Origin: an uncultured Candidatus Saccharibacteria bacterium
Lineage (GTDB): Bacteria; Patescibacteriota; Minisyncoccia; Phycocordibacterales; UBA2100
Direction: 5' to 3'
DNA: 64,000 nucleotides
NCBI GenBank assembly: GCA_964434285.1
Contig: CAYSUJ010000001.1
Location: 104,703 to 168,702 of the forward strand
The notes under the pieces were generated by a model. That model was not told the origin of the DNA and did not search any database. It was given only the letters and a program-made list of their open reading frames with translations. Below, piece by piece: positions 6,021 through 61,350 of this stretch (position 1 is its first letter; each line of letters begins with the position of its first letter). The position numbers were made by a program, and so were the translations under genes.

Positions 6021-6022
6021 CT

Positions 6023-7580: not shown

Positions 7581-7596
7581 CGCTGTCGCAACGCGT

Positions 7597-10745: not shown

Positions 10746-10746
10746 A

Positions 10747-10776: not shown

Positions 10777-11007
10777 GTGTGTTCCATTTCTGGAAACCGA
10801 TATAGAGCCAGGCAACGCCAAGCGTCAGTGCGCTGATCGCACTACTCCAGAGCTGGAGCGTTCCGAACGTGGTCGCCACAACCATCACCATGAGTCCAGT
10901 GGAAACCGAGCTCAAAAGCGGCGGCTTGTCTGTCGGGTGGCGTATCGTCGGAATCAGAGCTACGAGAAAGAACCAGTTTGCGAACGCAAGCACATAATCC
11001 TGCCACA
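10760..11007 (-). CDS. Small membrane protein (82 aa, 2 TM)
   Basis: MWQDYVLAFANWFFLVALIPTIRHP...LTLGVAWLYIGFQKW. The longer ORF to 11095 would overlap the leuS start. Confidence 0.4.
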
Positions 11008-11074
11008 TGTGTTTCTCCTTCAGCTTTACGGCAGGAATATACCAGATTAGGAGTCCTCGTGCTATTCTCGTTCC

Positions 11075-13504
11075 ATGCGCGCGTACGACCACCAAAAGAT
11101 AGAGAAGAAGTGGCAGAAGGAGTGGGAGAAATCTGGTGTGTATCGCTCTGCCGAGGATGGCTCAAAGCCGAAGTCGTATGTGCTCGATATGTTTCCGTAC
11201 CCTTCAGGGGAGGGGCTTCATGTGGGGCATCCTAAAGGCTACATCGCAACTGATATCGTCTCTCGCATGGCACGTATGCAGGGAAAGAATGTGCTGCATC
11301 CTATGGGCTGGGACGCGTTCGGTCTGCCCGCAGAAAACTACGCGATCAAGAACAAAGTGCACCCACGAAAAGCAGTAGAAAAGAATGTTGCGCGTTTCAA
11401 AGAGCAACTCCAGAAGATCGGCTTAGATTACGACTGGAGTAGGGAAATAAACACGACCGATCCTGAATATTACAAATGGACGCAGTGGATTTTCTTGAAG
11501 CTCTACGAAAAAGGGCTCGCGTATCAATCATTCGAGCCGATCAACTGGTGTCCATCGTGTCAGACGGGGCTCGCAAACGAAGACCTCGACGGGAATGTGT
11601 GCGAGCGCTGTGGCACCATCGTCGAAAAACGCCCGATGCGTCAGTGGACACTCAAGATCACCGATTATGCCGAGCGACTCCTCAAAGATCTCGATCTACT
11701 CCCCGAGTGGCAAGAGCACATTAGGGAATCTCAACGAAATTGGATAGGGAAAAGCGAGGGGGCTGAGATTGATTTTCAGCTGACTGGCGGCGGAGCAGTA
11801 AAAGTTTTTACCACACGTCCTGACACGCTTTTTGGTGCGACGTACGTGGTCATTGCACCAGAACATCCTATTCTCAAAGAATTGCAGTCGCGCGTCACTA
11901 TCCTCGACGAAGTTGTCGCGTATGCAAAACAGGCTGCAGAAAAAACGGAAATAGAGCGAACCGCCGAGGGTAAAGAAAAAACCGGCGTAAAGCTTGAAGG
12001 CGTCTCCGCCATAAATCCCGCAACAAAAGAAGAGATTCCCATTTTTGTTGCCGACTACGTCCTCGCCCACCACGGCACCGGCGCCATCATGGCAGTCCCA
12101 GCGCACGACGAACGCGATTTTGCATTCGCGAGGAAATTCAATCTACCTGTTAAGGTCGTGATAGCACCCGATTTCATAATGGCCTCGGGAAGTAAATATG
12201 ATGCTTCTCACCTTGATGATGAATACACTTCTGGTACTCGCTGCTGGACGAATGACGGCTACGTTCGTGACTCTGAACATTTTACAGGGATGAAATCGGC
12301 TGAAGCCCGAAGTGCAATTACCGAGAAGTTCGGTACGAAGAAAACCACCTACAAACTACGCGACTGGGTTTTTTCCCGACAACGGTACTGGGGAGAACCA
12401 ATTCCTATTGTGCATTGCGAGAAATGCGGCGTTGTGCCGGTGCCTGAGAGCGAGCTCCCTGTAAAGTTGCCAGAAGTGGAACACTACGAGCCGACGGGGA
12501 CGGGGGAATCACCACTCGCTGCAATTGATTCATGGGTGAATACCACATGCCCCAAGTGTGGTGGTGCGGCAAAGCGCGAGACGAACACCATGCCGCAGTG
12601 GGCGGGCTCGAGCTGGTATTACCTTCGCTATATGGATCCAAAGAATGATGCGGCGCTCGTCGACTCCGCGAAAGAAAAATACTGGGCACCCGTTGATGTG
12701 TATGTGGGTGGAGCAGAACACGCAACACGTCACCTTATTTACGCGCGCTTTTGGCACAAATTCTTGCAGGACATCGGCGTGGTTTCTATGCCAGAGCCTT
12801 TCACGCGTCTGATTTCAGTGGGGCTTATTCAGGCAGAAGATGGCCGTAAGATGTCCAAGCGCTTCGGCAACGTCATCAACCCTGACGACATCGTGGAAAC
12901 CTACGGCGCTGATACGCTGCGCATCTATGAGATGTTCATGGGGCCATTTTCGGACGCGATTGCATGGAAGACGTCCTCACTCATCGGTGCGCGCCGATTC
13001 TTAGAGCGCGTGTGGCGATTGCAGGAATCGTTCGTCACCGATTTAAACGCAGAAACGGAGCGCGCACTTCATCAAACCATCAAGAAGGTGGGCGAGGATA
13101 TCCAGAATTTCAAATTCAACACGGCAATCAGCCAGATGATGATTTTTGTGAACGAAGCAGAAAAATCTGGAATCACAAAGGAACAATATCAAGCCTTCAT
13201 TACACTCCTCTCGCCCTTTGCGCCGCACATTGCGGAAGACATTTGGCACGAACTAGGGAACGAAGGTTCCGTGCATGTCGCCCCATGGCCTCAGTATGAT
13301 GATAGTAGGTTGCTTGCAAACGAAGTCACTATCGTCGTCCAAGTGAACGGCAAAGCACGTGCCACGCTCAATCTCGCACGCGATTCTGCAAAAGAAGCTG
13401 TCGAAAAAGCTGCTCAAGAAGCCGCCACAAAATGGCTTGAAGGCAAGACTCCAAGCAAAGTTATTTTCGTACCAAATCGCCTCTTGAATCTTGTAATTGC
13501 ATAA
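11075..13504 (+). CDS. leuS: Leucyl-tRNA synthetase
   Basis: HVGHPKGY (HIGH) and KMSKRFGN (KMSKS) motifs. 809 aa class I aaRS with LeuRS-like N-terminus (KIEKKWQKEWEKSGVY). Confidence 0.95.
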   Translation: MRAYDHQKIEKKWQKEWEKSGVYRSAEDGSKPKSYVLDMFPYPSGEGLHVGHPKGYIATDIVSRMARMQGKNVLHPMGWDAFGLPAENYAIKNKVHPRKAVEKNVARFKEQLQKIGLDYDWSREINTTDPEYYKWTQWIFLKLYEKGLAYQSFEPINWCPSCQTGLANEDLDGNVCERCGTIVEKRPMRQWTLKITDYAERLLKDLDLLPEWQEHIRESQRNWIGKSEGAEIDFQLTGGGAVKVFTTRPDTLFGATYVVIAPEHPILKELQSRVTILDEVVAYAKQAAEKTEIERTAEGKEKTGVKLEGVSAINPATKEEIPIFVADYVLAHHGTGAIMAVPAHDERDFAFARKFNLPVKVVIAPDFIMASGSKYDASHLDDEYTSGTRCWTNDGYVRDSEHFTGMKSAEARSAITEKFGTKKTTYKLRDWVFSRQRYWGEPIPIVHCEKCGVVPVPESELPVKLPEVEHYEPTGTGESPLAAIDSWVNTTCPKCGGAAKRETNTMPQWAGSSWYYLRYMDPKNDAALVDSAKEKYWAPVDVYVGGAEHATRHLIYARFWHKFLQDIGVVSMPEPFTRLISVGLIQAEDGRKMSKRFGNVINPDDIVETYGADTLRIYEMFMGPFSDAIAWKTSSLIGARRFLERVWRLQESFVTDLNAETERALHQTIKKVGEDIQNFKFNTAISQMMIFVNEAEKSGITKEQYQAFITLLSPFAPHIAEDIWHELGNEGSVHVAPWPQYDDSRLLANEVTIVVQVNGKARATLNLARDSAKEAVEKAAQEAATKWLEGKTPSKVIFVPNRLLNLVIA

Positions 13505-13571
13505 TTAGTGTAACGTGGCATAATATTAACTAACCCTGCGGGTTGTCTGCGGGAATGAAGGAGAAGAACTC

Positions 13572-13697
13572 ATGTTCATGGCAAAAGCGGTCGTCCTTGC
13601 ATTGGGTTTGCTCGCTACCTTAGTGATTTGGACCGAGTGGTCTCAACTCAGAGAGCCCAAGGAGACGCCGGCATCCACCATCAGTCTGGTGCGATAA
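13572..13697 (+). CDS. Small membrane peptide (41 aa)
   Basis: Strong SD (GAAGGAGAAG) 6 nt upstream of the ATG. MFMAKAVVLALGLLATLVIWTEWSQLREPKETPASTISLVR. Followed by a perfect 11-bp hairpin. Confidence 0.35.
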   Translation: MFMAKAVVLALGLLATLVIWTEWSQLREPKETPASTISLVR

Positions 13698-13710
13698 ATT
13701 TTCTCGCCCC

Positions 13711-13737
13711 AAGCGCCTGACCTCACGTCAGGCGCTT
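13711..13737 (+). terminator. Perfect 11-bp hairpin (AAGCGCCTGAC-ctcac-GTCAGGCGCTT) overlapping the last codons and stop of cysS
   Basis: Seen directly in the sequence. Lies between convergent small ORF (+) and cysS (-). Confidence 0.5.
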
Positions 13738-15176
13738 GTCTTTCTCACTACGCGAGGGCCTGTAGCGGTATCTTCAATGACATAGCCCGCCAATTCGATT
13801 TCTTTACGTGCGGCGTCGGCGTCATCCCATTTCTTTTCTTTTCGCGCTTCCTCACGCTTCATAAGAAGTTCCTGAATGTTTCCTGGAACTGCCTCTTCCG
13901 CAATGACGACACCAAATTCTGTTTCCCACAGTTTCCGCGCTTGGGTATCTTCACCTGCAAGATTAAGTCCGAGCACCTGGTCAAAGTCCACAAGACCCGC
14001 ACGCAGATTTTTTGGCGCGAGCGACGAATCTTTCGTCATCTCCCAAAGAATTGCGAGTGCGCCTGGCGTATCGAGGTCGTGTGCAATTTTTTCAGTGAAG
14101 CGGTGTTTGTAATCCTCAGGAACCGAGCCTCCTTCGGGAAGGGTGTCGACAAATCTGCGTAGTTTGAGGAATGCTGTTTGTGCAGACGTGAGCGCTTCCC
14201 AGGTAAACGAGGCAGGCTGACGATAGTGCGCGCCGAGAAGAAGATAGCGGAATGCGAGCGGGTGGAATCCTTTTTCGATAACGTCGGTGAGATAGACGAC
14301 ATTGCCCTCAGACTTTGCCATCTTTCCGCCGTCGAGCTGGAGATGCGCGCGATGCATCCAGAAGCGTGCAAACGGACGCTTCCCGCTCGCACTCTCTGAC
14401 TGCGCGATCTCGTTGTTGTGATGCACGGGGATATGCTCGATGCCGCCCGTATGGATGTCTATCTGCTCTCCGAGGAGCTCTTTGCTCATCGCCGAACATT
14501 CGATATGCCATCCTGGAAATCCTTTTCCCCAGGGCGAGTCCCACCCGATCTTCTCATCGTTCTTCCAGAGCACGAAGTCAGTCGGATTCTTCTTCTCCTC
14601 ATTCGTCGCGACACGGACGCCTTCCTTCAAAGCGTCGAGTTTAATGTTGCCCAGCGCGCCATATGCAGGGAAGCGAGAGGTATCGAAATACACGGCTTTC
14701 GCTCCGACATACGCAAAGCCTTTTTTTTGAAGCGTTTTGATCATCTCAATCTGCTCTGGCACGTACGCGGAGGCTCGTGGAAATTGTGTGCTCTCAGTGC
14801 GGATATTAAGTGTTGCGAGATCATGCAAAAAAATCGTCGCATACTTCTCAGCGAGCGTATGCATATTTTCAAGCGTGGGCGAGAGCCCCTCCTGCTTCAG
14901 CCCCTTCATCATCTTGTCGTCGCCCTCGTCCGCGTCCGATGTAAGATGGCCGAAATCGGTGATATTGATGACCTGCTTAACTGAGTAGCCTGCGTATTCA
15001 AGTGTCCGACGGAGTATGTCGGTAAAGACAAACATCGAAAGGTTGCCGATGTGTTGCACTCCATACACCGTCGGCCCGCAGTGGTACATTTTCACCTCTT
15101 GCCCCTGTAAACCAAGAGGCTCTTCTTTTTTAGAGAGCGTGTTATGGAGCACAATCTCACTTTTCATAACAGCCAT
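13728..15176 (-). CDS. cysS: Cysteinyl-tRNA synthetase
   Basis: CGPTVYGVQHIGN (HIGH) and KMAKSEGN (KMSKS) motifs. Confidence 0.93.
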   Translation of the reverse strand: MAVMKSEIVLHNTLSKKEEPLGLQGQEVKMYHCGPTVYGVQHIGNLSMFVFTDILRRTLEYAGYSVKQVINITDFGHLTSDADEGDDKMMKGLKQEGLSPTLENMHTLAEKYATIFLHDLATLNIRTESTQFPRASAYVPEQIEMIKTLQKKGFAYVGAKAVYFDTSRFPAYGALGNIKLDALKEGVRVATNEEKKNPTDFVLWKNDEKIGWDSPWGKGFPGWHIECSAMSKELLGEQIDIHTGGIEHIPVHHNNEIAQSESASGKRPFARFWMHRAHLQLDGGKMAKSEGNVVYLTDVIEKGFHPLAFRYLLLGAHYRQPASFTWEALTSAQTAFLKLRRFVDTLPEGGSVPEDYKHRFTEKIAHDLDTPGALAILWEMTKDSSLAPKNLRAGLVDFDQVLGLNLAGEDTQARKLWETEFGVVIAEEAVPGNIQELLMKREEARKEKKWDDADAARKEIELAGYVIEDTATGPRVVRKTSA

Positions 15177-40793: not shown

Positions 40794-41504
40794 TCACCCC
40801 AGCCAAAGCTCTTTAGAGAGCTTTTTTTCAAGACTACCCTCCGCAACTTCCTGCGCAAACTCTCGAAATCCCTGACGATCACCAAAAATTTCTCGAAGAA
40901 GATCGCTATCAAGGAGTCCGGAGGCCCGCGCACCTGTGTACGAGCCAAGACTTGAAAAAGGATCTTGAAGTGCCCAGTCAAACGCATTATCAAACTCATT
41001 CATCGCCTTACGATAACCACCTGGGTATCGTTCCAGCGGGTTCTTGACTTGAATATACGCCGCAAGATATTCAAGATATTCATCTGAATCCACGGTGCGC
41101 GATCGATATGCGCCCTGAAAGATGGTGCCGCGCTCATTGTATTTCGTATTGAAGTACATAGACATGCTTGTGCAAAGTTTTTGCATAAATTTGCTGACAC
41201 CCCCTTCGCGAGTCTCTTGCACCAGCAGATGAAAATGGTTATCCATAAGGCAATACGCAAGTATGGCGGTATAAGGCTTTTGTTCCCCCCAAGAATCCGG
41301 GCGCTTAAAACCCTCTCTTATATGCTGGGGGGTAATATCTCGGTCCCAATGTTGAGGAGCGTTTTCGTCGTTCAGATAACGTAAGAGACGTAGAAAGCGC
41401 CATTTATCGGATTCATCACGAACGATGTTCATACCTCGCGCACCGCGCTTAACGATGTGTACATATGAACCCACGGTAAATGGCTCCTTCCTCATTTGAC
41501 GCAT
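40794..41504 (-). CDS. REP-associated tyrosine transposase (RAYT; IS200/IS605-like Y1 HUH transposase)
   Basis: HUH motif YCLMDNHFHLLVQE. Catalytic Tyr region EYLAAYIQVKNPLE. Perfect SD AAGGAG 6 nt upstream of the ATG at 41502-41504. Flanked by inverted copies of the same palindrome. Confidence 0.75.
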   Translation of the reverse strand: MRQMRKEPFTVGSYVHIVKRGARGMNIVRDESDKWRFLRLLRYLNDENAPQHWDRDITPQHIREGFKRPDSWGEQKPYTAILAYCLMDNHFHLLVQETREGGVSKFMQKLCTSMSMYFNTKYNERGTIFQGAYRSRTVDSDEYLEYLAAYIQVKNPLERYPGGYRKAMNEFDNAFDWALQDPFSSLGSYTGARASGLLDSDLLREIFGDRQGFREFAQEVAEGSLEKKLSKELWLG

Positions 41505-41523
41505 ATTATCTCCTTTCATGTGC

Positions 41524-41546
41524 TTGGCAAGGTCAGACCTTGCCAA
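41524..41546. repeat. REP-like perfect palindrome TTGGCAAGGTCaGACCTTGCCAA (copy 2)
   Basis: Same palindrome as copy 1 in inverted orientation. Confidence 0.7.
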
Positions 41547-46168: not shown

Positions 46169-47482
46169 TCAGAAAGGTTTCGGCGGGTTTTCGACCAAGA
46201 CAGTGATATCGGAGGGGTTTGAGGGAAATGTTGAGCGCCAAAATGGGACGAGCAGAGCATGCGCCTCTTCTACAGAAGGGTAGGCGCCCACTATTGCCTG
46301 AAATGCACTCTCATCCTTTGCAGCAAGCGCAGTTGCTAGCCCTAATGAATCAATTTGCCAAACAAGCTGTGCGACTCCAGAGAGCGAGAAAGAGATTGAC
46401 TCTACACCGTAAGACTCAAACGTGCTATTCGATGTTAGAGATGCACTTGCTGAATCAGAAAAGAAAATTGTAATGTCATTATTCTCGGCACTTGCACTCA
46501 CTGCTTCACCGACCGCTTTTGCGAATAAAGCACTTTTAAAGACGGGTATGCGAACACGTACTCGCTCGCCCACTCTCACCCCTCCCGATTCCTTTTGTGG
46601 CAAAAGATCCTCATACGATAGCTTGGCAAGATCAGTAAAAAGGGTCGCACCTTCCGGTGCTTCAATGGCACGAACTTTTTCCCCCAAGCGAGCGCGCACT
46701 TCCGTCCGAGCAGCTTCGAGGGAAGCCCGTGGCACAGAAGGACGCTCTCCGGAAAAGCCTCCAGTGAATTTATCCTGCGACGTAGCATACACTCCAGCAA
46801 ACATATCGGGCGTCCCCTTAAGGCCGGGCAAGGTCATTTTTGCGTATGGACCGACATTGTAATCAGATCCAGCTTGATCGGCGAAAATTTCAGCCTGTAT
46901 ACTCCCGGGCGTGACGCCAATTTTTCCAGGCACTTCTATAGAATTCTGAATGCGAAAGATTTTCCCGTCTGGCGACTCAAATCGGGTATTCTTTATGAGT
47001 CGAATGGAATCTTCGGAATAGGCGTTAAATACAGTGATGGTACCCTTTGCCAGCTCCTCAGAAAATTCGACGCCACTTGCTGGGACTACAACGGTTTCTT
47101 CAAAAGTTTCTTCGATAAGGCTGTATGTAAGTCCTGTCGTCGTACCAGCAGGAAATGCCGTAAAAGAAGTAGAAGCGTCAAATGGAACAGTTTGCGTGTG
47201 AGGCACGATCGTAACCTTTGTCTCAGGTATAAAAAGCATGGCCACCAAGCTTCCAAGAACAAACAGTGAAATCAACGCAGTGATCCACACACGACCGGGC
47301 CGCTTCCTACTCGTCCCCGTATCTGATACGGGTGGTCGAACGGGGTTTGGGCGCGCCATTCTGACTCGAGCCTCTGAAGGTTCAATGTGACGAATTGAGC
47401 GCTCAGGAGGTATACGCGGCTCTTCGCCACTGCGTGTGTCTATATCATGCCTATACGTCTTCATAGTGTCAGTGTACATCAC
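46169..47482 (-). CDS. Hypothetical bitopic membrane protein (Pro/Arg-rich cytoplasmic N-tail, one TM, ~350-aa extracytoplasmic domain)
   Basis: TM: VWITALISLFVLGSLVAMLFI. No recognised domain. Confidence 0.45.
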   Translation of the reverse strand: MMYTDTMKTYRHDIDTRSGEEPRIPPERSIRHIEPSEARVRMARPNPVRPPVSDTGTSRKRPGRVWITALISLFVLGSLVAMLFIPETKVTIVPHTQTVPFDASTSFTAFPAGTTTGLTYSLIEETFEETVVVPASGVEFSEELAKGTITVFNAYSEDSIRLIKNTRFESPDGKIFRIQNSIEVPGKIGVTPGSIQAEIFADQAGSDYNVGPYAKMTLPGLKGTPDMFAGVYATSQDKFTGGFSGERPSVPRASLEAARTEVRARLGEKVRAIEAPEGATLFTDLAKLSYEDLLPQKESGGVRVGERVRVRIPVFKSALFAKAVGEAVSASAENNDITIFFSDSASASLTSNSTFESYGVESISFSLSGVAQLVWQIDSLGLATALAAKDESAFQAIVGAYPSVEEAHALLVPFWRSTFPSNPSDITVLVENPPKPF

Positions 47483-47490: not shown

Positions 47491-48591
47491 CTATTCCTCA
47501 AACATATTCACAGCCGCGGCAGTCGTCGCAATCATTGCATCTCTCACAGTACCCGCCTCAAATGAAGCGAGACTATCGATATCTGTCTGCTGCATAGTTT
47601 GTACTGAGAAGGGTTGCGTCGTTGTCGTAAACTGCGAAAAATCAATTCGCGAGAAAAAGTGTGATAGCCAAGGCGTGACTTCAGTTGGGGCAAAAAGCAA
47701 CATGTCATTCGGGAGGCGCCGAGTACTCGCAAGCGTTGCAAACATGTCTCCGAATGAACGGACGAGCTCGGGTTCTGCTCGTGCAACTACATCTTTCATC
47801 GCACTGCATGTCTCTGAGGAACAAAAATCCGACTCCGCCATCCTGAAGAGCGAAAGTGTTTCTTCTGGAAGTCCGTGCGGTGCGACACGCTTGAGGATAG
47901 TAGCAACTCCATCAATTGACGTTCCATATTGCGTCTCTGTTTCGTGACGAATAACCATACATTCGCTCATACCTCGAATCGAAAGAACAACAAAGCGATT
48001 GAGATGCGGCATGCGCTCGTGGGCGACGGTCAAGAAAATACGAGCACCCGTATGAAATTGGACTCGACGACCGGGAAAATAGCTCCCAATTGAGTGCTCG
48101 GAAGCGGTGCGGAAAAGCTGCAGGACACTGCCTCCAAATACTATGGTTTCGAGTGTACATGCGCGCTTTCCGAGAGGACGTTCGGTTGGATAGCCATTTA
48201 GAAATACGCGGACAACGCCTGCCTCTGCGTCCTTTTCTTGAAGTTTTTCGAGTGCCGAGCGCGCAACCTCATCAATGAGCGCTTTGGTGATCGTTCGTTC
48301 CTTTTCAAACATCACGCTCCCCGAAGCGGTTCCAAAGCGACTCCATGGTTCATGAACGACAACATGAATACTTTCGGGTGCAAAGCGGTTGGCGGTATCC
48401 TTGAGAAGGGTATCGATGGTACTTACTACGGCTATTCTTATTTGTTCATCACTCCGCTCTTCAAGGGGCAGCAATGCTCGTTTCGCATAAAGGATGTGCG
48501 GTTTATCTTTGACTGCGCGCGCATAGCAAACGGTGGCGCCATCGCTTGCAGCGCTAACAATACACACCACCTTTCCCTTGGGGTGGAACAT
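47491..48591 (-). CDS. Hypothetical protein (366 aa)
   Basis: No confident domain. Located between alaS and the infA/ribosomal block. Confidence 0.4.
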   Translation of the reverse strand: MFHPKGKVVCIVSAASDGATVCYARAVKDKPHILYAKRALLPLEERSDEQIRIAVVSTIDTLLKDTANRFAPESIHVVVHEPWSRFGTASGSVMFEKERTITKALIDEVARSALEKLQEKDAEAGVVRVFLNGYPTERPLGKRACTLETIVFGGSVLQLFRTASEHSIGSYFPGRRVQFHTGARIFLTVAHERMPHLNRFVVLSIRGMSECMVIRHETETQYGTSIDGVATILKRVAPHGLPEETLSLFRMAESDFCSSETCSAMKDVVARAEPELVRSFGDMFATLASTRRLPNDMLLFAPTEVTPWLSHFFSRIDFSQFTTTTQPFSVQTMQQTDIDSLASFEAGTVRDAMIATTAAAVNMFEE

Positions 48592-48610
48592 TCATGTAAG
48601 TATACCCTAC

Positions 48611-50543: not shown

Positions 50544-52613
50544 CTAGCGCTTTTCCTTCATTGTTTCCAGCAAGAACGCGTAATCAAACGCGCGCTGTTT
50601 TATCCACTCGTAGCGGCCGCTTTTCCCGAAGTGACCGCCATCGGTTTCTACTTTGAAAAGGAGTGGGTTTGTGTCAGTTTTCTTTTCGCGAAGGCGAGCG
50701 ACCCATTTCGCCGCTTCCCAGAATGGTGTGCGGATGTCGTGCATGGATGCGCGAACGAGTGTGGGAGGATACGCGACTGCGCGTACATTTTCGTAGGGCG
50801 ATTGCTTGAAAATGTAGTTAAACTGCTTTGGAACGCGCGGATCGCCGATCTCGTCGTAGTGGAGACGGGTGCCACCGAGCGATTCGTCGAGAAGCGAGGT
50901 GATGAGATCTGCTGCAGGAACGTAGACGACCGCCGTACCGAAGAGTTCTGGATTCTTATTCAACACCTGTCCCATGAGCATGCCGCCAGCGGAGCCGCCG
51001 GTAATCGCGAGACGCTCGCGCGTCGTGTACTCATCTTTCACGAGCTTTTTTGCGACGGCAATAAAGTCGTCGGAAGTGCGATGTTTTGTGAGAAGATGTG
51101 CCGCTTTGTGCCAATGCCAACCCATTTCACCTCCGCCTCGTGGATGCGCGACAGCAATAATCCACCCGCGCTCAAGGAGTGAGAGGCGCGCGACGGAGAA
51201 ATGCGGATCGTTCGTGATGCCATAAGAGCCGTAGGCCTCGAGAAGCAGAGGAGCCTTCTTTTTTACATTCTTTTTGTAGGCAAGGACGACCGGAATACGC
51301 ACGCCGTCACTTTTCACCCAGATGCGCTTCGAGGCGTACGCGGTCTTGTGAAAATACGGCACTTCCTGGCGTTTGCGCACGGTGAAGGTTTTCTTTTCGA
51401 CATCATAATCAAACGCAGTTTTGGGCGTGATAAATGAGTCGTAGGTTATACGGATAAAAGGCGATTCGTATTCAATGTCGCCCCAAAGCGCGATAGTGTG
51501 ACCGTCTTCCGGGAAAACTACTTTCTCGCGCTCTCCCTCTGGCGATGAAATATAAATCTCCTCAGAGCCATCCTCGCGGATAGTGAGCACGAGAAAATCC
51601 TTGAACGGCGCAAAGCCGACAATAGATCGCTTTAATGTGTGCGAGAGCCAGGTTTTCCAATGCTTCTTCTCGGGCTTCGCGACGGGCGTGCGCATGATTT
51701 TGAAGTTCACCGCGCGCTCATTGGTGGCGATGTAGAAATAGTCACCATGATGCTCGACGGAGTAGCGCACTTTCGGCGCGCGCTTCGCGATAAGATGTGG
51801 CACCTCAAGCGGTGCATCTGCTTTCAGGAAGCGAACTTCGCTCGTCGTGTAGTTGCCTGCGCCGATGAAAATGTATTCCTTGCTGCGGCTTTTGCCCAAG
51901 CCGACGTACCACTGTAGATTCTCTTCTTCGAAGATGAGTGTGTCTTGCTCGCAGGAACCGAGCAGGTGGCGAAAAACTTTTCGTGGTGGGTGCGGGTGTT
52001 CTTCCTGAGTGTAAAAAAGATACGCACCATCAGCCGACCACTCAACATCTCCGACTGATTCGATGCTGTCGGGCAACAGTTCTCCGGTCGCGAGATTTAT
52101 TATGAAAAGCGTGTGATCTTCGGCCCCCTTCGTGTCTATCGTGTAGGCAAGAAGCGTATGGTCGGGAGAAACCGCACTTGCCCCGAGTGAAAAATAATCA
52201 GAATCTTTTGCGAGGACGTTCTCATCAAGAATGATCTCCTCTTTTCCGCGCTCTCCACGTTTGCGACAGTGAATCGCATACTCCTTCCCTTTTTTTGTGC
52301 GACTGTAGTAAAAATATGGACCATCTTTCACAGGGACCGACATATCATTCTCCTTTACCCGAGCACGAATTTCTTTGTAGAGCTTCGCTTGGAGGCGCTT
52401 CGCGCCGGAAAGTGCCTTGTCGGCGTACTCATTTTCCGTCTTTAGATATGAGAGAACATCTGGATCTTTTGCATCCTGGAGCCACCGGTATTCATCCGTC
52501 CACTTCTTTCCATGCAGTGAAAAAACCTGCGGTTTTACCGCAGGACGAGGGGCCGAAAGTGCGCGGTTCCCTTGCATCGGAGGTACTGTACCCCTCCTCG
52601 CCAGATTTGACAA
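50544..52613 (-). CDS. Prolyl oligopeptidase family serine peptidase (S9A; oligopeptidase B-like)
   Basis: N-terminal beta-propeller plus C-terminal alpha/beta hydrolase with GGSAGG nucleophile motif. Confidence 0.85.
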   Translation of the reverse strand: MSNLARRGTVPPMQGNRALSAPRPAVKPQVFSLHGKKWTDEYRWLQDAKDPDVLSYLKTENEYADKALSGAKRLQAKLYKEIRARVKENDMSVPVKDGPYFYYSRTKKGKEYAIHCRKRGERGKEEIILDENVLAKDSDYFSLGASAVSPDHTLLAYTIDTKGAEDHTLFIINLATGELLPDSIESVGDVEWSADGAYLFYTQEEHPHPPRKVFRHLLGSCEQDTLIFEEENLQWYVGLGKSRSKEYIFIGAGNYTTSEVRFLKADAPLEVPHLIAKRAPKVRYSVEHHGDYFYIATNERAVNFKIMRTPVAKPEKKHWKTWLSHTLKRSIVGFAPFKDFLVLTIREDGSEEIYISSPEGEREKVVFPEDGHTIALWGDIEYESPFIRITYDSFITPKTAFDYDVEKKTFTVRKRQEVPYFHKTAYASKRIWVKSDGVRIPVVLAYKKNVKKKAPLLLEAYGSYGITNDPHFSVARLSLLERGWIIAVAHPRGGGEMGWHWHKAAHLLTKHRTSDDFIAVAKKLVKDEYTTRERLAITGGSAGGMLMGQVLNKNPELFGTAVVYVPAADLITSLLDESLGGTRLHYDEIGDPRVPKQFNYIFKQSPYENVRAVAYPPTLVRASMHDIRTPFWEAAKWVARLREKKTDTNPLLFKVETDGGHFGKSGRYEWIKQRAFDYAFLLETMKEKR

Positions 52614-52629: not shown

Positions 52630-52887
52630 CTATTTAAGCGCGCCTTCTTTTTTCAAGAGTGCGCGTTTTTTGGGTTCCCCACCGCGATTGTAGGAGCCGA
52701 GCGAACCATCCGAGCGCACGACGCGATGACACGGAATGTCTTGTGAATAATTTGAACGCATCACCGCGCCTACGGCACGCGCCGCTTTTGCATTCCCTGC
52801 CCTACGTGCAACTTCGGCGTAGGTCATCGTTTTCCCTGTTGGGATTTTTCTCACAACATCGCGCACCCTGTCCGCAAAGGATTTCAT
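52630..52887 (-). CDS. Methylated-DNA-protein-cysteine methyltransferase DNA-binding domain protein (MGMT/Ogt C-terminal domain only, 85 aa)
   Basis: IPCHRVV active-site motif and HTH (MTYAEVARRAGNAKAARAVG). Confidence 0.75.
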   Translation of the reverse strand: MKSFADRVRDVVRKIPTGKTMTYAEVARRAGNAKAARAVGAVMRSNYSQDIPCHRVVRSDGSLGSYNRGGEPKKRALLKKEGALK

Positions 52888-53678
52888 AAACCCAACGTCC
52901 CTTGCCCCTTCTTTGCACCCGGCATAAAGGCCTGCATTTTTTTACCGACCATTTCGCGGTAGGTGCAGTAGTCGCAATCAGCAGCAGGTTTCGGAAGCGC
53001 TTCGCTATCAAGGCACTCTTTGATCTTCAAAAGTGTAGGCTCAACCCATGAGTCACTGCCTTTGTGCGGCACGATCGTGATTTCAAATTCGAGCACGCCG
53101 TCGAAGGCTTTTTTGTCTTTTCCAGCGTTTGCATACACGAAATAGCCAGTGTCTGAAACTCTAAAACCGTTACGACGGAACAGCCACTGATACACCTCCA
53201 TCTGCCGCTTGTAGCCATCATGCCAATCTTTGTCTAAAACTTCGATCTTTTCATCTTTACTCGTTGATTTGTAGTCGACGATATACAGTTCACCCCGGGG
53301 TGTGACCCACGCATCATCGATAGCGCCGGAGACGGTAAAGCCGGTCTCGGGATGTTTGTAGTCGATGCCCTTAAAGTTCTCTCGCCACACATCCATGCGC
53401 TCGTGTTGAAATGGCACCGCATCTATCCCATATTGCTCCATCAGAGGATGTGCGGTTTTGTCGGCGCGATGGATGTCGAACTCTTTTTTGAGGAGTGCAT
53501 CGACAGCGCTATTGAGTGCAAATGGGAACCCAGGTGGGCGGGCGGTGCCGAGCTTATTATCAATGTAAAAACAGCGCGGGCATTCAGTGAAGAGATCGAT
53601 TTTTGATCGGGAAAGGCGCCAGCGGGGCCCGCCATAATTCCAGTCCGGCTTGCGATCCGGTTTGTAGTATTCGCTCAT
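52884..53678 (-). CDS. PD-(D/E)xK nuclease superfamily protein, Cas4/RecB-nuclease-like with 4 Cys
   Basis: N-terminal CPRCFY, central ELYIVDYKS (D...DYK), QMEVYQWL (QxxxY), C-terminal CDYCTY. 4-nt overlap with the MGMT-like gene. Confidence 0.6.
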   Translation of the reverse strand: MSEYYKPDRKPDWNYGGPRWRLSRSKIDLFTECPRCFYIDNKLGTARPPGFPFALNSAVDALLKKEFDIHRADKTAHPLMEQYGIDAVPFQHERMDVWRENFKGIDYKHPETGFTVSGAIDDAWVTPRGELYIVDYKSTSKDEKIEVLDKDWHDGYKRQMEVYQWLFRRNGFRVSDTGYFVYANAGKDKKAFDGVLEFEITIVPHKGSDSWVEPTLLKIKECLDSEALPKPAADCDYCTYREMVGKKMQAFMPGAKKGQGTLGL

Positions 53679-53690
53679 CGCGAGATTATA

Positions 53691-54146
53691 TCATTCGTCC
53701 TCCACGTGTCCGTGATACCAATGTTTGAACGCGTGCTCGATATACCAGAGCCCGAAAAAGATGAGGAGCGTAAGCGCCGCTGCAAAAATCGCGAGTGAAT
53801 ACATGCCGGTTGCTACAAGGACACCGAGCGCAGCGGAGACCCAGAGACCGGCGGCGGTCGTGATGCCATGAACGGAACTTCCCTGCACAAACATGAGTCC
53901 GGCACCAATAAAACCAACACCTTGCACTATCGCGGACATGACGCGCGTCGGGTCGAAATTCACATAGCCGAGGTAGTGCCCGCCGACAGTGATACCTGCG
54001 AGTGTGAAAAGACATGAACCGAGCGACACAAGCGCAAAAGTTCGCATTCCCGCCGACTGCTTTGCGACAAGCGCACGCTCAGTACCAACAACGAGCCCAA
54101 GCAGTGCCGAAAGAAACAGTTGGCCGAACATGACGACTTCGTTCAT
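53691..54146 (-). CDS. MgtC/SapB family membrane protein
   Basis: LVVGTERALVAKQSAGMRTFALVSLGSCLF matches the MgtC signature. Confidence 0.75.
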   Translation of the reverse strand: MNEVVMFGQLFLSALLGLVVGTERALVAKQSAGMRTFALVSLGSCLFTLAGITVGGHYLGYVNFDPTRVMSAIVQGVGFIGAGLMFVQGSSVHGITTAAGLWVSAALGVLVATGMYSLAIFAAALTLLIFFGLWYIEHAFKHWYHGHVEDE

Positions 54147-54171
54147 AGCATGAGTATACGGGCTCTTTGAG

Positions 54172-55083
54172 CTAGACGCGTGAATGAATCGCACGAGGTG
54201 TGAATTGCGATGCGACAGCCTCTGGAGAACACAAATATCGCGCCTCTTCTAGAATGGCAGGAATACGAGCAGGCTTGACCCCATACTCTTCGAGCACGTG
54301 TTTGGCCTGAACACTTTTGCAAAGAACGATATTGTTCTCCAAGAGTTGGCGCTTCTCCCCTTCGTGCAGCGTGGTGAGGGCAGTGAGCGGATGCACGCGC
54401 GCTTCTTCTATCATCTCGCGCAGACCGCGTCGTGTTGGATAATCCCAGCCCAACAGTGTCAAATTGGAGCATCTCGCGTAGCGGATCGCATTTCGAGTGA
54501 ACCTCGTATTGGTGACGAGCCACCCCTCGTCGACGCGTGCCGATAACTCCGGTGCTCGGGCAAGGTCTTCAAAGCGCGCTTTCACATAGAGAGCGTCCTT
54601 AATATCCGTCTTCCCTCCCGCCTCATTGTGAAATTTAGCTTCAATGCCGATTCGGCGACCACTTTTTTCAGCAAGCACATCGACCTCATGCGGCGCACAG
54701 CGACCCGTCATGGCGACACCCGTCTGTGCCCTCCACCCGTGCGCACGCAATACTTCCGCGAGGAATTGTTCAAAAGGAAAACCCGATGGTCCCAGCGCGA
54801 AGAGAGCACGCTTAATGGAATATCGCGCAGCGACGGCTGGAGTACCCTCATCCCTTAAATATTCAAACGCATGCGCATAGATGTCTTCGGTGCGCATGCC
54901 CTCGCGAAGCTCTTTTTTTATACGCGCAGCAATGTGTTCTCGCGCAGCTGCGGAAGCACCCGCGTGTGCAAGCGATGCGTCGAGTTTGTGTGGGTCAAAC
55001 GGCTCACGCTCTCCGTCTGCTTTTGTTATAAGAACATGTGACACAAGTGTAGTATAACGCGCTCGCGTAGCTCCACGACACAA
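54172..55083 (-). CDS. ATP-cone domain fused to Mrr-like restriction-endonuclease (PD-(D/E)xK) domain
   Basis: ATP-cone: VLITKADGEREPFDPHKLDASLA. Nuclease: FEQFLAEVLRAHGW...PHEVDVLAE...IGIEAKFHN (D...E-x-K). Confidence 0.55.
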   Translation of the reverse strand: MCRGATRARYTTLVSHVLITKADGEREPFDPHKLDASLAHAGASAAAREHIAARIKKELREGMRTEDIYAHAFEYLRDEGTPAVAARYSIKRALFALGPSGFPFEQFLAEVLRAHGWRAQTGVAMTGRCAPHEVDVLAEKSGRRIGIEAKFHNEAGGKTDIKDALYVKARFEDLARAPELSARVDEGWLVTNTRFTRNAIRYARCSNLTLLGWDYPTRRGLREMIEEARVHPLTALTTLHEGEKRQLLENNIVLCKSVQAKHVLEEYGVKPARIPAILEEARYLCSPEAVASQFTPRAIHSRV

Positions 55084-55092
55084 ACCTGTGAG

Positions 55093-57230: not shown

Positions 57231-58697
57231 TTAGAGCGGAAGGTTCGGCGGCGGTTCGGCTTTTGATGATGGAATGCGCTGGAGACCCGGTGTTTGCACG
57301 GTGCGCGATGGTGGGTGCCAAAGTGTTGCGAGTGTTTCCACACTCGTGGTGTTCCACCACGCCTTCCAGGGTGCGTGAAAAACTTGCCGACGACGATACG
57401 CATCGAGATACCTATGTGTCTCATGCTCTTCACGAGTGCCGCGGAAGTCTTGCCAGGGCCAGTCAAAATCGTTGTGCGCGTGTTTGGGGCGAATATACAC
57501 CTGCCAGATCGGGTTACCATACGGACGCCAGATCCAACGAATCGCACTGTATTCTCCACCACGTTTTTTACCACGCGGAGCCAAATAAATCATACGCATG
57601 CCGTAATCGAACGGCAACTTGCTCATGTGCCGCTCCATACCGCGAATAAGCTCGCTCTGTCGCCACGTCGGGCGTGGGAACCCAACCGCATCTTCATCCT
57701 CTTTATCACCCTCCAACTTCTCCAATTTAGTAGATGCACGCCTGATCTTTTCAACTTCCGCCGCTATCGTTTCTGCCCATTTATCTTTGCTGAAATGCCC
57801 CCGTATCACAATCTGAATCCATGCCTGCTCGTCTGGGTTAAGAGCGCTGAGCACTTCTAAAACTGACGAGAGCGGCTCAACCTTTAACTCCTCTTTCGGA
57901 TCCTTGTCTAATTCAAAATCGACATAGGTTTTTATTGGGTAGGCATTGATGCTATCGCTATGGTAGCTGACCTTATAGCCTTCAGGGGCGTAATCGCCGA
58001 CAAATGCCTCGTGTTCGTGATGATCGTAATGAAAACGTATCGAGTAATCTTCCACTTCTACAATCTCCACCTCTGGATACTGCGCATACATGTTGCTCTC
58101 GATCACGTTTTTCAGAATGTCTCTACTCGACCAAATATAAAAATGTATCTGGCCGCCAAACGATGCTATTTCAAAAGAAAAATAGGGCAAGACACCGCCG
58201 CCCCAATACTGATCAATGGGCGTCGTTGTACTCATGCGGATCCACAGATTCGTAAACACAAGCTCCATCGCGCGGGGTGATTTCGTGATCTCTTGCGGCA
58301 TTTTCACTTCGAGCAATACAGGACGCGTGCGAGTGAAGATGAAGTTGGATTGCACATACCATATCCACGACATCCAAAAGCCGTATGCGAGTCCGACTGG
58401 TCCCGCAATCGGGAAGACCATGACAAGCCAACCAAACAGCAATTGTGGGAATTCGGGGAGGAGCGCCGTCGCCGCAAGAGGAAGAGGAAGAAAAAGTGCG
58501 CAGAGAAAAGTTCCTCGCGAAATACCATGACTACCTGCCCATTCAACCCATTCGTGTAGGGAGAGCCATTTCTGAATAAATCCGTGTTCGCCGTGTCCAT
58601 GACCACCATGCCCACCAGAGATAAAGTCGTCTATAGCATGCGCTGTTTTATCGAACAGCGAATCAAGCAGCGATCCCTTTGGCGCTTCTTCACTCAT
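57231..58697 (-). CDS. Hypothetical membrane protein (488 aa) with His-rich N-terminus (GGHGGHGHGEHG) and Trp-rich C-terminal domain
   Basis: 2-3 predicted TM helices (residues ~60-110). No recognised domain. Confidence 0.45.
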   Translation of the reverse strand: MSEEAPKGSLLDSLFDKTAHAIDDFISGGHGGHGHGEHGFIQKWLSLHEWVEWAGSHGISRGTFLCALFLPLPLAATALLPEFPQLLFGWLVMVFPIAGPVGLAYGFWMSWIWYVQSNFIFTRTRPVLLEVKMPQEITKSPRAMELVFTNLWIRMSTTTPIDQYWGGGVLPYFSFEIASFGGQIHFYIWSSRDILKNVIESNMYAQYPEVEIVEVEDYSIRFHYDHHEHEAFVGDYAPEGYKVSYHSDSINAYPIKTYVDFELDKDPKEELKVEPLSSVLEVLSALNPDEQAWIQIVIRGHFSKDKWAETIAAEVEKIRRASTKLEKLEGDKEDEDAVGFPRPTWRQSELIRGMERHMSKLPFDYGMRMIYLAPRGKKRGGEYSAIRWIWRPYGNPIWQVYIRPKHAHNDFDWPWQDFRGTREEHETHRYLDAYRRRQVFHAPWKAWWNTTSVETLATLWHPPSRTVQTPGLQRIPSSKAEPPPNLPL

Positions 58698-58771: not shown

Positions 58772-59812
58772 TTACCGAGCAAGCGTGTAGCGACCATCCT
58801 GTGTGCGCTTGAAATCACTATGCTGGAGATTCACGACAATCGTTGCATCTTTCACGTAGCGCTCGCGCTTTACACGGTCAATGATTTCCTCACGAGAGAG
58901 TGCGCCGTCGCGAGAAAGCACTCCCTTAATGACCTCACGCACGACGCCAGGCGCATATCCCCATTCCTGCAAGGCGTAGAGGCCGCGACCAACGAGAATA
59001 AAGCGACCATCCTTAATGAGTTCGTTGTGCGTTGTAGCGGGGTGCGCACTTTTCTTGAAGAGATCACGAATTCCCTTTGCCACCTCCGTGAAGTGCATCG
59101 GTGAGCCATGACGCTTGAGGGTCAGATACGCGAAATCACGTGTATTCTTGATGCGCACATGTGGCGATTCCAGGCGCCCCCATTCGCCAAGCGGGTTTCT
59201 TCCGAGGCGCTTAGAAATTTGAAGGTAGCGGAGCATGGTCTCTGCCTCGCGAATCTTCACACCCGCTTCTTTCAAATGCTTAGCGAAGAGGTCGAGAAAT
59301 TCATCCTCCGGAAGAAGTGCTGATGCGTCCACCGCGTCGTAGAGTTCCTGCAGTGCCGTTTCCACAGATTCGGCCAGTGCCTGATCGACAAACCAGCGAC
59401 GACGGAAATCCGGCGTTTCGCGCTTGTCGGTAAAATGATGCCCGACGGTGAGAAGGAACAGTACATGATTGCGCTCCGTGTCGCTTTTCGGAAGCTCCGA
59501 GAGAATGGTGTGTTCGGCAAGAATACCGCCGAGAGCGGCAATCGTCTGCTTTATTTCCTCAAGAGTGCGTGCATGCTCAGTGTAGGCATCAGAATCACGG
59601 ACGGCTGAAAGACCGCTCCCCTCGATCTGACGGATGCGCTCGCGGGTGATGCCGTATTCTTTGCCGATGGATTCGAGGGTTTTTCCCTCGCCACCTTGCA
59701 AGCCGAAGCGATCAACCAGAACCTTCCGGACGCGGTCGGGGAGGCCTCCGATAAGTTCCTTAGTGACGGATTTTGGTTGAAGCGATTGCATGGTCAAAAT
59801 TGACTTGGACAC
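58772..59812 (-). CDS. Sigma-70 region 4-like HTH domain protein fused to a ~270-aa uncharacterised C-terminal domain
   Basis: GKTLESIGKEYGITRERIRQIEGSGLSAVR closely matches RpoD region 4.2. No sigma regions 1-3. Confidence 0.5.
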   Translation of the reverse strand: MSKSILTMQSLQPKSVTKELIGGLPDRVRKVLVDRFGLQGGEGKTLESIGKEYGITRERIRQIEGSGLSAVRDSDAYTEHARTLEEIKQTIAALGGILAEHTILSELPKSDTERNHVLFLLTVGHHFTDKRETPDFRRRWFVDQALAESVETALQELYDAVDASALLPEDEFLDLFAKHLKEAGVKIREAETMLRYLQISKRLGRNPLGEWGRLESPHVRIKNTRDFAYLTLKRHGSPMHFTEVAKGIRDLFKKSAHPATTHNELIKDGRFILVGRGLYALQEWGYAPGVVREVIKGVLSRDGALSREEIIDRVKRERYVKDATIVVNLQHSDFKRTQDGRYTLAR

Positions 59813-59952: not shown

Positions 59953-61338
59953 ATGACTCAGGTTCGCATCCCTCCGCAAGACATTGAAACCGAGCGCGCG
60001 CTCCTTGGCTCGCTCCTCATCAATCAAAGCGCCATCTACGAAGTAGCAGACGTCGTGCATATCGATTCATTTTATGCGGGCAAACATCGCACCGTGTATG
60101 ACGCGATGGTGAGTCTCTATGGCAAAGGTGATCCTATCGACGTCGTCACGGTCGCAAGCAAGCTCGACGAGCGTAAGCAGCTGCAAGAAATCGGAGGACG
60201 TGCATACCTTTCGGAACTCGCGGGGGCGGCAGCTTCCCCCGGCTCGGCGCGTCACTACGCCGAAGTCGTGCAATCTAAATTTGTGCTCCGCTCTCTTCTC
60301 GACGCCGCCGCAAAAATCGGCGAGCTGGGCTTCCAGGAAGACCGCGAGGTAGAGCATGTCCTCGATGAGGCGCAGCAGGCCATTTTTGCCGTCACGAACG
60401 CCCCGATGCTCCAAAAATTCACCGCGATCAAAGAGGAGCTCTCCGAGGCATGGGAACGGCTTGAAAGCCTCCAGAAGCACACGGGTGCAATGCGCGGAGT
60501 CCCCACAGGCTTCCCCGCGCTCGATACTATGCTTTCTGGTTTCCAAAAATCAGACCTGATTATTCTTGCGGCACGACCATCTATTGGAAAGACAACGCTC
60601 GCACTCGATATTGCGCGCCAAAGCGCAACCAAATACAAAACACCTGTAGGTTTTTTCTCTCTTGAAATGAGTTCACAACAACTGGTAGACCGTATGCTTG
60701 CGGCACAGGCAGGGGTTAATTCGTGGCGACTGCGCACGGGAAAGATTTCCAAGGACGACGAGTTCGAACGTTTGCAAGATGGCATGGCGGAATTGAGTGA
60801 AGCGCCGATTTTTATTGACGATAAATCCTCGAGCACAGTACTCGCGATGCGTTCCGTCGCACGTCGCATGAAGATGGAAAAAGGACTCGGGCTCATCGTT
60901 ATTGACTACCTCCAGCTCATTATTCCCTCAACACAGGGAGCGAACGTATCCACTGTTCAGCAGGTAACCGAAATCTCTCGCGCACTCAAGGGTATGGCGC
61001 GCGAACTCGACGTGCCGGTCTTGGCGCTCTCCCAGCTCTCGCGTGCAGTTGAACAACGCGGCGGCCGCCCTCGCCTTTCTGATCTTCGCGATTCCGGGTC
61101 GATTGAACAAGATGCCGACGTAGTTATGTTTATCCACCGCGAGGACATGTCGGGAAGCCGTACGGAGGGAGAGCGCACCAATGTGGCAGAAATTCTCATT
61201 GAGAAACACCGTAATGGTCCTGTAGGGAAGGTAGATCTTCTTTTTGATGACCAAACTACCACCTTCAAAAGCGTAGAAAAAGCTGATTTCGGCGATTTCA
61301 CGCCAGAAGCAACCGTGGGTGACGAACAGCCGTTCTAG
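59953..61338 (+). CDS. dnaB: Replicative DNA helicase DnaB
   Basis: N-terminal ERALLGSLLIN. Walker A ILAARPSIGKTTLALD. RecA-like core. Confidence 0.93.
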   Translation: MTQVRIPPQDIETERALLGSLLINQSAIYEVADVVHIDSFYAGKHRTVYDAMVSLYGKGDPIDVVTVASKLDERKQLQEIGGRAYLSELAGAAASPGSARHYAEVVQSKFVLRSLLDAAAKIGELGFQEDREVEHVLDEAQQAIFAVTNAPMLQKFTAIKEELSEAWERLESLQKHTGAMRGVPTGFPALDTMLSGFQKSDLIILAARPSIGKTTLALDIARQSATKYKTPVGFFSLEMSSQQLVDRMLAAQAGVNSWRLRTGKISKDDEFERLQDGMAELSEAPIFIDDKSSSTVLAMRSVARRMKMEKGLGLIVIDYLQLIIPSTQGANVSTVQQVTEISRALKGMARELDVPVLALSQLSRAVEQRGGRPRLSDLRDSGSIEQDADVVMFIHREDMSGSRTEGERTNVAEILIEKHRNGPVGKVDLLFDDQTTTFKSVEKADFGDFTPEATVGDEQPF

Positions 61339-61350
61339 TATACTGAGCCC

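Follow-up and report, generated by a model that had tools for sequence, protein, structure and literature searches.

Four closely packed genes on the minus strand of an uncultured Candidatus Saccharibacteria genome raise a question: do they form a dedicated molecular system, or do they merely travel together? The genes lie at positions 52630–55083 of a 64-kb stretch of contig CAYSUJ010000001.1 (hereafter, "the window"). In order of transcription, they encode a nuclease fused to an ATP-cone, an MgtC-family membrane protein, a Cas4-like nuclease, and a small O6-alkylguanine-DNA alkyltransferase (MGMT). A sequence-only reading of this locus, performed without database searches, had viewed it as a defence or DNA-damage module rather than housekeeping. 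The analysis presented here leads us to another answer, which we consider probable: the row is a vertically inherited stretch of the core genome in which three maintenance units are held together by synteny, and it is neither a mobile defence island nor an obligate four-part system. The DNA-damage half of the earlier proposal retains some support, from the coupling of the Cas4-like gene to MGMT and from the uracil-DNA glycosylases (UDGs) that are found in the same slot in relatives; the notion of defence as opposed to housekeeping does not.

Conservation of the locus

To what extent is the row conserved? Gene neighbourhoods were scored by tblastn at 80 loci of the ATP-cone nuclease, which were termed close (≥60% identity) or distant (<60% identity). 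The named close homologues come from Candidatus Kaiserbacteria, Paceibacterota, and Minisyncoccia, and the host is accordingly placed in the Patescibacteria as a Kaiserbacteria-like organism. On two Kaiserbacteria contigs (74–79% identity in the nuclease), the gene order is RmuC, L21, RecR, DnaB, sigma70/HARE-HTH, DUF8128, YceG, MnmA, nuclease, MgtC, PDDEXK_1, MGMT, and alanyl-tRNA synthetase (AlaRS). The flanks of the row in the window follow the order of these relatives (MltG/YceG and MnmA on one side, AlaRS on the other). The row lies within a long collinear core block that is conserved across Paceibacteria.

The most constant neighbour of the nuclease is MnmA, which is located upstream of it at 20/21 close and 38/39 distant Patescibacteria loci. 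At the close loci, the Cas4-like gene (19/19), MgtC (18/19), and MGMT (16/19) are also found near the nuclease; the corresponding counts at the distant Patescibacteria loci are 17/37, 15/37, and 12/37. All four genes occur together at 15 of 19 close loci and at 6 of 37 distant ones. Family 4 UDG (UDG4) was not seen at the close loci and is near the nuclease at 12/37 distant ones. The slot between the nuclease and AlaRS has a variable content that includes DUF7282, MgtC, Cas4-like, MGMT, UDG4, Ung, and PCMT proteins, YfbR-like and HD_4 hydrolases, and M3 and M16 peptidases (all checked against Pfam).

Rates of evolution point in the same direction. Across the distant lineages, the median identity was 64% for the Cas4-like protein, 64% for MGMT, 51% for AlaRS, 47% for MnmA, and 47% for the nuclease. 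Because the Cas4-like protein and MGMT are more conserved than AlaRS and MnmA, and the nuclease is equal to MnmA in this respect, the genes behave as core genes do, and not as fast-turnover defence genes.

Only the Cas4-like gene and MGMT are tightly paired within the row. This coupling is evident from the distant loci, where 11 of the 12 MGMT genes directly follow the Cas4-like gene, often with an ATGA overlap of start and stop codons; about half of the 28 junctions examined have this overlap. However, 4-nt overlaps also join unrelated genes (UDG4-AlaRS, UDG4-HD, and UDG4-EamA). In genomes as compact as these, little can therefore be concluded about a common function from an overlap.

One further difference among the loci concerns the space upstream of the nuclease. 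Relatives at eight loci have a gene of about 137 codons without a known domain between MnmA and the nuclease (for example, at 7586–7999 of locus L001 and 7595–8011 of locus L002). This gene is absent from the window, in which MnmA and the nuclease are 48 nt apart (55045–55092).

Separate occurrence of the two nucleases

Each of the two nucleases occurs without the other elsewhere; thus, the four-gene architecture is not a discrete system. The genome scan for ATP-cone nuclease loci was carried out with an eight-sequence alignment, as a 32-sequence alignment was too diverse for scanning. At 15 loci outside Patescibacteria, no MgtC, Cas4-like, or MGMT gene was found near the nuclease. At nine of the 15, the nuclease is directly followed by a beta-CASP metallo-hydrolase; a gene for a thymidine-phosphorylase-family protein follows at five and one for a ribose-phosphate pyrophosphokinase (PRPP-synthetase)-like protein at four. 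All four genes (nuclease, beta-CASP, thymidine-phosphorylase-family, and PRPP-synthetase-like) form a cassette on annotated plasmids of Pontibacter actiniarum and Criblamydia sequanensis. In Criblamydia, its neighbours encode phosphoketolase, acetate kinase, glycogen phosphorylase, and a P-type ATPase. This cassette, which is found in Bacteroidota as well as on these plasmids and for which we found no description, looks like an energy-stress nucleotide-catabolism operon. The trio of beta-CASP, PRPP-synthetase-like, and thymidine-phosphorylase genes is induced by microoxia in Bradyrhizobium (PMC6515984). The cassette occupies 10001–14651 of locus L030, 1972–6597 of L084, and 7995–12602 of L085, where genes for phosphoketolase, acetate kinase, Usp, and P-type ATPase adjoin it.

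Could the row in the window serve a comparable end? In one alternative, which we judge to be quite unlikely, the two nucleases would constitute a nucleotide-salvage pair: at a low ATP/dNTP charge, the ATP-cone endonuclease would open nucleic acid, which would then be degraded to mononucleotides by a partner with 5'-3' exonuclease activity (the Cas4-like protein in Paceibacteria, the beta-CASP hydrolase in Bacteroidota/Chlamydiota), feeding an organism without de novo nucleotide synthesis. The metabolic company of the cassette and the microoxic induction of the trio speak for such a pair, as do genes for a YfbR-like 5'-deoxynucleotidase, HD_4 proteins, and PyrH in the Patescibacteria slot. However, no beta-CASP, thymidine-phosphorylase-family, or PRPP-synthetase-like gene is among the recurrent Patescibacteria neighbours, the exchange of one partner for another is purely conjectural, and the features of the Cas4-like protein described below (a clamp-like tail and its pairing with MGMT or UDG) fit repair better than bulk degradation. 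A more general proposal, which we advance tentatively and regard as doubtful, is that the ATP-cone nuclease is the founding case of a nuclease set by ATP/dATP charge. It would have lineage-specific exonuclease partners (Cas4-like in Paceibacteria; beta-CASP, with nucleotide-phosphorylase and PRPP-synthetase-like enzymes, elsewhere) and would turn nucleic acid into nucleotides or energy under starvation or hypoxia.

The Cas4-like protein was also studied apart from the ATP-cone nuclease. For a second Cas4-like lineage, the surroundings of the gene were sampled at 80 metagenome loci; its members have a GC content of 38%, are 49–64% identical to the protein of the window, and lack the C-terminal tail (as in loci L087 and L089). 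The ATP-cone nuclease was present at 0/49 of these loci and MGMT at 1/54, and no neighbour was conserved. On three contigs from IMG/VR (L087, positions 7–6756; L088; L089), a Cas4-like homologue of about 60% identity directly follows a 1063-residue methylase of the MmeI/Eco57I/TaqI_C type and a 948-residue unknown protein. A YceG homologue is near, and these "viral" contigs are therefore possibly bacterial.

Gene models and transcription units

The four open reading frames (ORFs) that had been proposed on the minus strand were all found at the coordinates given, and cluster look-up confirmed the four gene models after two starts had been corrected. For the ATP-cone nuclease, the TTG at 55083 (303 residues) gives way to a most likely start at GTG 55044, yielding a protein of 290 residues (54172–55044, minus strand); both domains of the proposed fusion were verified, and only its length was not. 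The MgtC protein most likely begins at ATG 54146 and has 151 residues, not 167 (53691–54146, minus strand). Both proteins, identical in length and sequence, are recorded for the 405-kb source contig. The corrections abolish the overlap between the nuclease and MgtC genes and leave 25 nt between the two. The Cas4-like gene (264 residues; 52884–53678, minus strand) and MGMT (85 residues; 52630–52887, minus strand) needed no change, and the 4-nt overlap of the former's stop with the latter's start is the ATGA at 52884–52887. The profile searches agreed with the domain assignments: ATP-cone, Mrr_cat, MgtC, PDDEXK_1, and DNA_binding_1 all scored above their curated Pfam cut-offs.

How might these genes be transcribed? 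The motif TATA[AC]T (TATAMT) is rare, occurring at only 28 sites on the two strands of the window (128 kb in total). Eleven of the 28 are located 4–9 nt upstream of an in-frame start near the 5' end of a gene; about 0.3 would be expected by chance, as estimated from the site frequency. This suggests that leaderless mRNAs are common in this genome. In the row, the motif stands exactly 6 nt before the starts of three genes: as TATACT upstream of the nuclease GTG (55051–55056, minus strand), a candidate leaderless-type promoter; as TATACT upstream of the MgtC ATG (54153–54158, minus strand), also a promoter candidate; and as part of a promoter-like arrangement, CGGACA-16 nt-(TG)TATAAT, that ends 6 nt upstream of the Cas4-like ATG (53685–53712, minus strand). 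None precedes MGMT. Because boxes precede three starts and not the fourth, the row is read as three putative leaderless-type units: the nuclease, MgtC, and a bicistronic unit of the Cas4-like gene and MGMT. Other gene starts that bear the motif are found, for example, in the regions of 48598–48603 and 61338–61350. A terminator-like hairpin downstream of MGMT (52526–52544, minus strand) was not used in delimiting the units, as it is inside the reading frame of a peptidase S9. It has a GC-rich stem of 8 bp and a T-run, lies 86 nt downstream of MGMT in the 5' end of that frame, and could have arisen by chance, act as an attenuator, or point to a later start of the peptidase.

Several points weigh against our reading of the row as separate units held by synteny. 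The neighbourhood counts were obtained on partial contigs, by tblastn together with a crude ORF caller, and the promoters are consensus matches only. No terminator-like site was detected between the four genes on the minus strand, and read-through is possible. In 12 divergent lineages in which neither MgtC nor DUF7282 is present, the Cas4-like gene starts at −4 to +15 nt from the nuclease stop; such tight junctions could reflect an ancestral operon of nuclease, Cas4-like gene, and MGMT. Finally, 22/37 distant loci have one or more genes for DNA repair (Cas4-like, MGMT, or UDG) just downstream of the nuclease, a higher share than one would expect if the slot were filled at random.

Some of these points lend themselves to the main rival explanation, a dedicated DNA-repair operon in which an ATP/dATP-gated endonuclease, a Cas4-like exonuclease, and MGMT (or UDG in relatives) would act on damaged DNA, with MgtC as a passenger. 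The close junctions, the missing terminators, the recurrent ATGA overlap, and the occupation of the same slot by UDG4 or Ung are all compatible with it, as is the proximity of RecR, DnaB, and RmuC. We nevertheless hold this explanation to be rather unlikely. The overlaps are not peculiar to repair genes, the Cas4-like gene accompanies the nuclease far less constantly than MnmA does (see above), membrane proteins with promoter boxes of their own (DUF7282 and MgtC) break up the row, and both nucleases are encountered without each other elsewhere.

The ATP-cone nuclease

The protein has three parts. Its N-terminal ATP-cone (approximately residues 6–79; 54808–55029, minus strand) scored 39.3 bits against PF03477 (cut-off 25.8), and in the same protein Mrr_cat scored 40.3 bits (cut-off 21). 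In Foldseek and hidden Markov model (HMM) comparisons, the model of the ATP-cone, a four-helix plus beta-hairpin fold, superimposes on those of NrdR and ribonucleotide reductase (RNR), and residues K8, G11, F16, and K20 are conserved in alignments of homologues. The PD-(D/E)xK nuclease core (approximately residues 88–198; 54451–54783, minus strand) has a restriction-endonuclease fold, and its residues E92, D122, E135, and K137 are invariant among 32 diverse homologues. The C-terminal helical domain (approximately residues 205–275; 54220–54432, minus strand) has its helices at 208–272 in the model and probably binds DNA.

The closest structural relative is AF1548 (PDB 1Y88), which matched the family profile with E = 1e-54 over the nuclease and C-terminal domains; the latter aligns to residues 117–196 of 1Y88. 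Yooseph et al. (2007; PMC1821046) predicted D38, E51, and K53 to be the catalytic residues of AF1548, and D122, E135, and K137 of the present nuclease correspond to them. The AlphaFold2 model of the nuclease was of high quality by its scores (predicted local distance difference test [pLDDT] 92.7; predicted template modelling score 0.88). When this model was submitted to Foldseek, 1Y88 ranked first (template modelling [TM] score of 0.80 on the target), followed by the nuclease domains of MspJI, NucS, AspBHI, Can2, and Cdn1.

The family is large: it numbers 1147 clusters at 50% identity, 438 of which have E ≤ 1e-30, and Patescibacteria, Bacteroidota, Chlamydiota, and other groups together account for at least 597 GTDB species genomes with a copy. 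Nearly all of the best 150 clusters have a length of about 280 residues and cover the ATP-cone. A search of the accessible literature yielded no experimental study of this family or of the fusion, and no report of activity for AF1548 or the present nuclease.

By analogy to RNR and NrdR, the ATP-cone would bind ATP/dATP and switch the enzyme via its oligomeric state. Gating of this kind would tie nucleic-acid cleavage to the nucleotide or energy charge of the cell. The genes with which the nuclease shares operons in other phyla suggest a part in the turnover of nucleic acid or the salvage of nucleotides, not in restriction. In the window, the gene would be the first of the three units, expressed from its own leaderless-type promoter.

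The Cas4-like nuclease and the alkyltransferase

The Cas4-like protein was described by the sequence-only reading as a Cas4/RecB-like nuclease with four cysteines and without a CRISPR context, and this description proved sound. It scored 58.1 bits against PDDEXK_1 (cut-off 22), and the fold and the D, D/ExK, and QxxxY motifs place it in the PDDEXK_1/RecB family. The motifs CPRC, DYK, QMEVY, and CDYC are all discernible in the sequence. Alignments of homologues revealed that C33, C36, the two C-terminal cysteines, DD, DYK, and QxxxY are invariant. Models specific for CRISPR-associated Cas4 remained below their cut-offs (18.9 vs. 22.7 bits for Cas_Cas4, PF01930; 34.9 vs. 65 for TIGR00372). The cysteines tell the same story. 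Those of Cas4 and AddB are arranged in a 1+3 pattern (C...CxxCx5C in Cas4); the protein studied here departs from this pattern, having a 2+2 arrangement (CPRC...CDYC) with one CxxC near each terminus. The four cysteines may bind a metal or an iron-sulfur cluster. Neither cas1 nor cas2 was found in the window or in any of the 160 related loci examined, and the rest of the window had no cas matches. The AlphaFold2 model (pLDDT 86.5) retrieved Cas4, Exo5, AddB, AdnA, MGME1, and Dna2 in Foldseek, with TM scores of 0.37–0.50; no significant sequence relative was found in the PDB, even with a profile search.

The C-terminus of the Cas4-like protein has an additional element. In 99 of 120 homologues, a variable, Lys-rich linker is followed by Q-x-[ST]-L-G-[LIF] or [ST]LF; in the window, this tail reads QGTLGL (52884–52900). 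Clamp-binding motifs conform to a consensus of the type QL[SD]LF or QLxLxL after a flexible linker, and the clamp-binding tail of Escherichia coli Pol IV is QLVLGL. The tail of the Cas4-like protein may thus be a sliding-clamp-binding motif, and we treat it as a lead.

That the last gene encodes an 85-residue MGMT-like protein with a PCHR cysteine was borne out: it scored 101.7 bits (E = 2e-29) against DNA_binding_1 (PF01035; cut-off 27) and 79.4 against TIGR00589 (cut-off 46.4). Upon alignment to Ada-C (1sfe) and human AGT (1qnt), the catalytic set of the alkyltransferases is intact: Tyr, the Arg finger, Asn, the Cys and His of PCHR, and the C-terminal Glu. The protein aligns only to approximately residues 96–175 of Ada-C; it has no N-terminal domain, and equivalog models of full-length alkyltransferases scored far below their cut-offs. 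Alkyltransferase-like (ATL) proteins have a replaced active-site Cys and act as damage sensors without transfer. As PCHR is kept here and in relatives, the protein is not an ATL. These features set it apart from the classical two-domain enzymes and from the Cys-less ATLs alike. An apparent 324-residue MGMT fusion at a related locus (L019) was discarded, as it had been created artificially by a masked run of Ns that lies between the MGMT and Ung genes.

Together, these two proteins would make up the third unit: a Cas4-like nuclease with metal- or iron-sulfur-binding cysteines, a Lys-rich linker, and a clamp-motif-like tail that may tether it to the sliding clamp, translationally coupled to a one-domain suicide alkyltransferase. 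Such a pair would function in replication-associated DNA repair.

The MgtC-family protein

Transcribed from a promoter of its own, MgtC would form the second unit. Its assignment to the MgtC family of membrane proteins was upheld: it scored 108.6 bits (E = 3.4e-31) against PF02308, for which the cut-off is 31.4, and thus has the MgtC membrane domain. Unlike the virulence factor MgtC of the Salmonella type, this 151-residue MgtC/SapB-family protein has no soluble domain at its C-terminus, and the NCBIfam equivalogs for MgtC remained below their cut-offs (96.6 vs. 214 and 67.6 vs. 255). The protein has no detectable functional tie to the products of the other three genes. A link between MgtC, ATP synthase, and the ATP-cone, conceived by analogy to Salmonella MgtC, was dropped; nothing here supports it.

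Is the locus a defence system?

The arrangement of a nucleotide-sensing domain with a nuclease also admits an anti-phage or abortive-infection role: the ATP-cone would sense an infection-induced change in ATP/dATP and unleash the Mrr-like nuclease, by analogy to Can2 and Card1, with the Cas4-like protein as a second effector. Apart from the sensor-plus-PD-(D/E)xK layout, which resembles those of Can2 and Cdn1, this idea can draw on the Cas4-like homologue that follows a MmeI/Eco57I-type methylase in the three IMG/VR contigs and on a weak match of the nuclease to the nuclease domain of ZorD (E = 3e-4). We consider it very improbable. When the four proteins were compared to PADLOC-DB 2.0, no system emerged; the only hits were domain-level cross-matches to Cas4 models and to ZorD, and no type IV restriction model matched the nuclease. 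Among 52 other ORFs of the window, PADLOC detected nothing system-like; matches to LmuA, HamA, and RT-protease models all traced to a single trypsin-like protease (5046–6020) and do not represent a defence system. No winged-helix modification reader (Mrr_N) was found by Pfam in the ATP-cone nuclease, which sets it apart from Mrr type IV enzymes. The 64 kb contain neither a CRISPR-like repeat array nor a restriction-modification methylase, a partner for which the sequence-only reading had proposed a search.

The wider distribution of the genes is no more suggestive of defence. No relative of either nuclease was found in 50,697 phage records, and the plasmid relatives comprised two full-length ATP-cone nucleases, both in the metabolic cassettes, and one Cas4-like protein (Flagellatimonas). 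The remainder of the window is devoted to housekeeping (aminoacyl-tRNA synthetases, Hsp70/DnaJ/GrpE, ribosomal proteins, and FtsW). Given the core synteny, the slow evolution, the dearth of phage and plasmid relatives, and the lack of a PADLOC system, the defence half of the original proposal is unsupported. The lesson from our preferred reading, core-genome synteny, is that when genes for DNA enzymes stand close together on one strand of a streamlined Patescibacteria genome, this can reflect conserved gene order and not a system.

Other features of the window

Between the Hsp70 and GrpE genes, a 250-residue ORF (40794–41546, minus strand) matched Pfam Y1_Tnp, the domain of IS200-like Y1 transposases (E = 3.7e-11), and possibly represents a tyrosine transposase that has been domesticated or is REP-associated. 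Three minus-strand genes had no match in Pfam or PADLOC. The DUF8128-like gene at 57231–58697 (488 residues) is kept beside YceG across Paceibacteria; that at 47491–48591 (366 residues) is kept across Paceibacteria after AlaRS, as the "u396" cluster; and that at 46169–47482 (437 residues) has a counterpart of similar size, also without a Pfam match, in one close relative (L001). A 346-residue protein (58772–59812, minus strand) combines sigma-70 region 4 with HARE-HTH, an unusual sigma-like architecture, and its position is conserved in relatives. There were no tRNA genes in the 64 kb, nor any Rfam families at the gathering threshold.

Comparison with known systems

All four genes fall into catalogued families that are well represented in databases, and their products can be compared with characterized proteins. 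The ATP-cone nuclease shares with AF1548 of Archaeoglobus fulgidus, a structural-genomics target of "unknown function," a homologous nuclease core and the C-terminal helical domain; however, the crystallized chain of AF1548 is devoid of the ATP-cone. For this family, there are hundreds of clusters of sequences and a crystal structure that has been an orphan for 20 years, with no function in the searchable papers.

Regulation by ATP-cones is known mainly from RNR and NrdR. With NrdR and the alpha subunit of RNR, the nuclease has the ATP-cone in common and likely the same logic, in which the binding of ATP/dATP controls an attached effector; here, though, that effector is a nuclease fold instead of a zinc-ribbon DNA binder or a reductase. 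If the ATP-cone were shown to gate the nuclease, this regulatory principle would extend beyond those two cases. The type III CRISPR ancillary proteins Can2, Card1, and Cdn1 also feature a nucleotide-sensor domain fused to a restriction-fold nuclease. Their sensor is a CARF domain, whereas that of the present protein is an ATP-cone, which occurs without a CRISPR context and in a core-genome position.

The Cas4-like protein resembles Cas4, the AddB/AdnA nuclease domains, Exo5, Dna2, and MGME1, several of which have an iron-sulfur cluster, in its fold, in the D, D/ExK, and QxxxY motifs, and in the four cysteines that bracket the core. It differs from them in the 2+2 disposition of those cysteines, in having no neighbouring cas genes, and in the C-terminal linker with its QxTLG[LI] tail. 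A flexible, basic linker and a motif at the extreme C-terminus are also characteristic of the clamp-tethered NucS/EndoMS and of Pol IV from E. coli, to which the likeness is in the motif only. This slowly evolving protein could be a core repair nuclease of organisms that have minimal repair sets, and its pairing with a one-domain, Cys-containing MGMT makes for a low-cost biochemical test case.

Finally, MGMT comports with Ogt, Ada-C, and human AGT in its C-terminal alkyltransferase domain and lacks their N-terminal domain. In its one-domain size, it is akin to the ATL proteins Atl1 and vpAtl (116 residues in 3gva and 108 in 2kif); in contrast to them, it keeps the reactive Cys.

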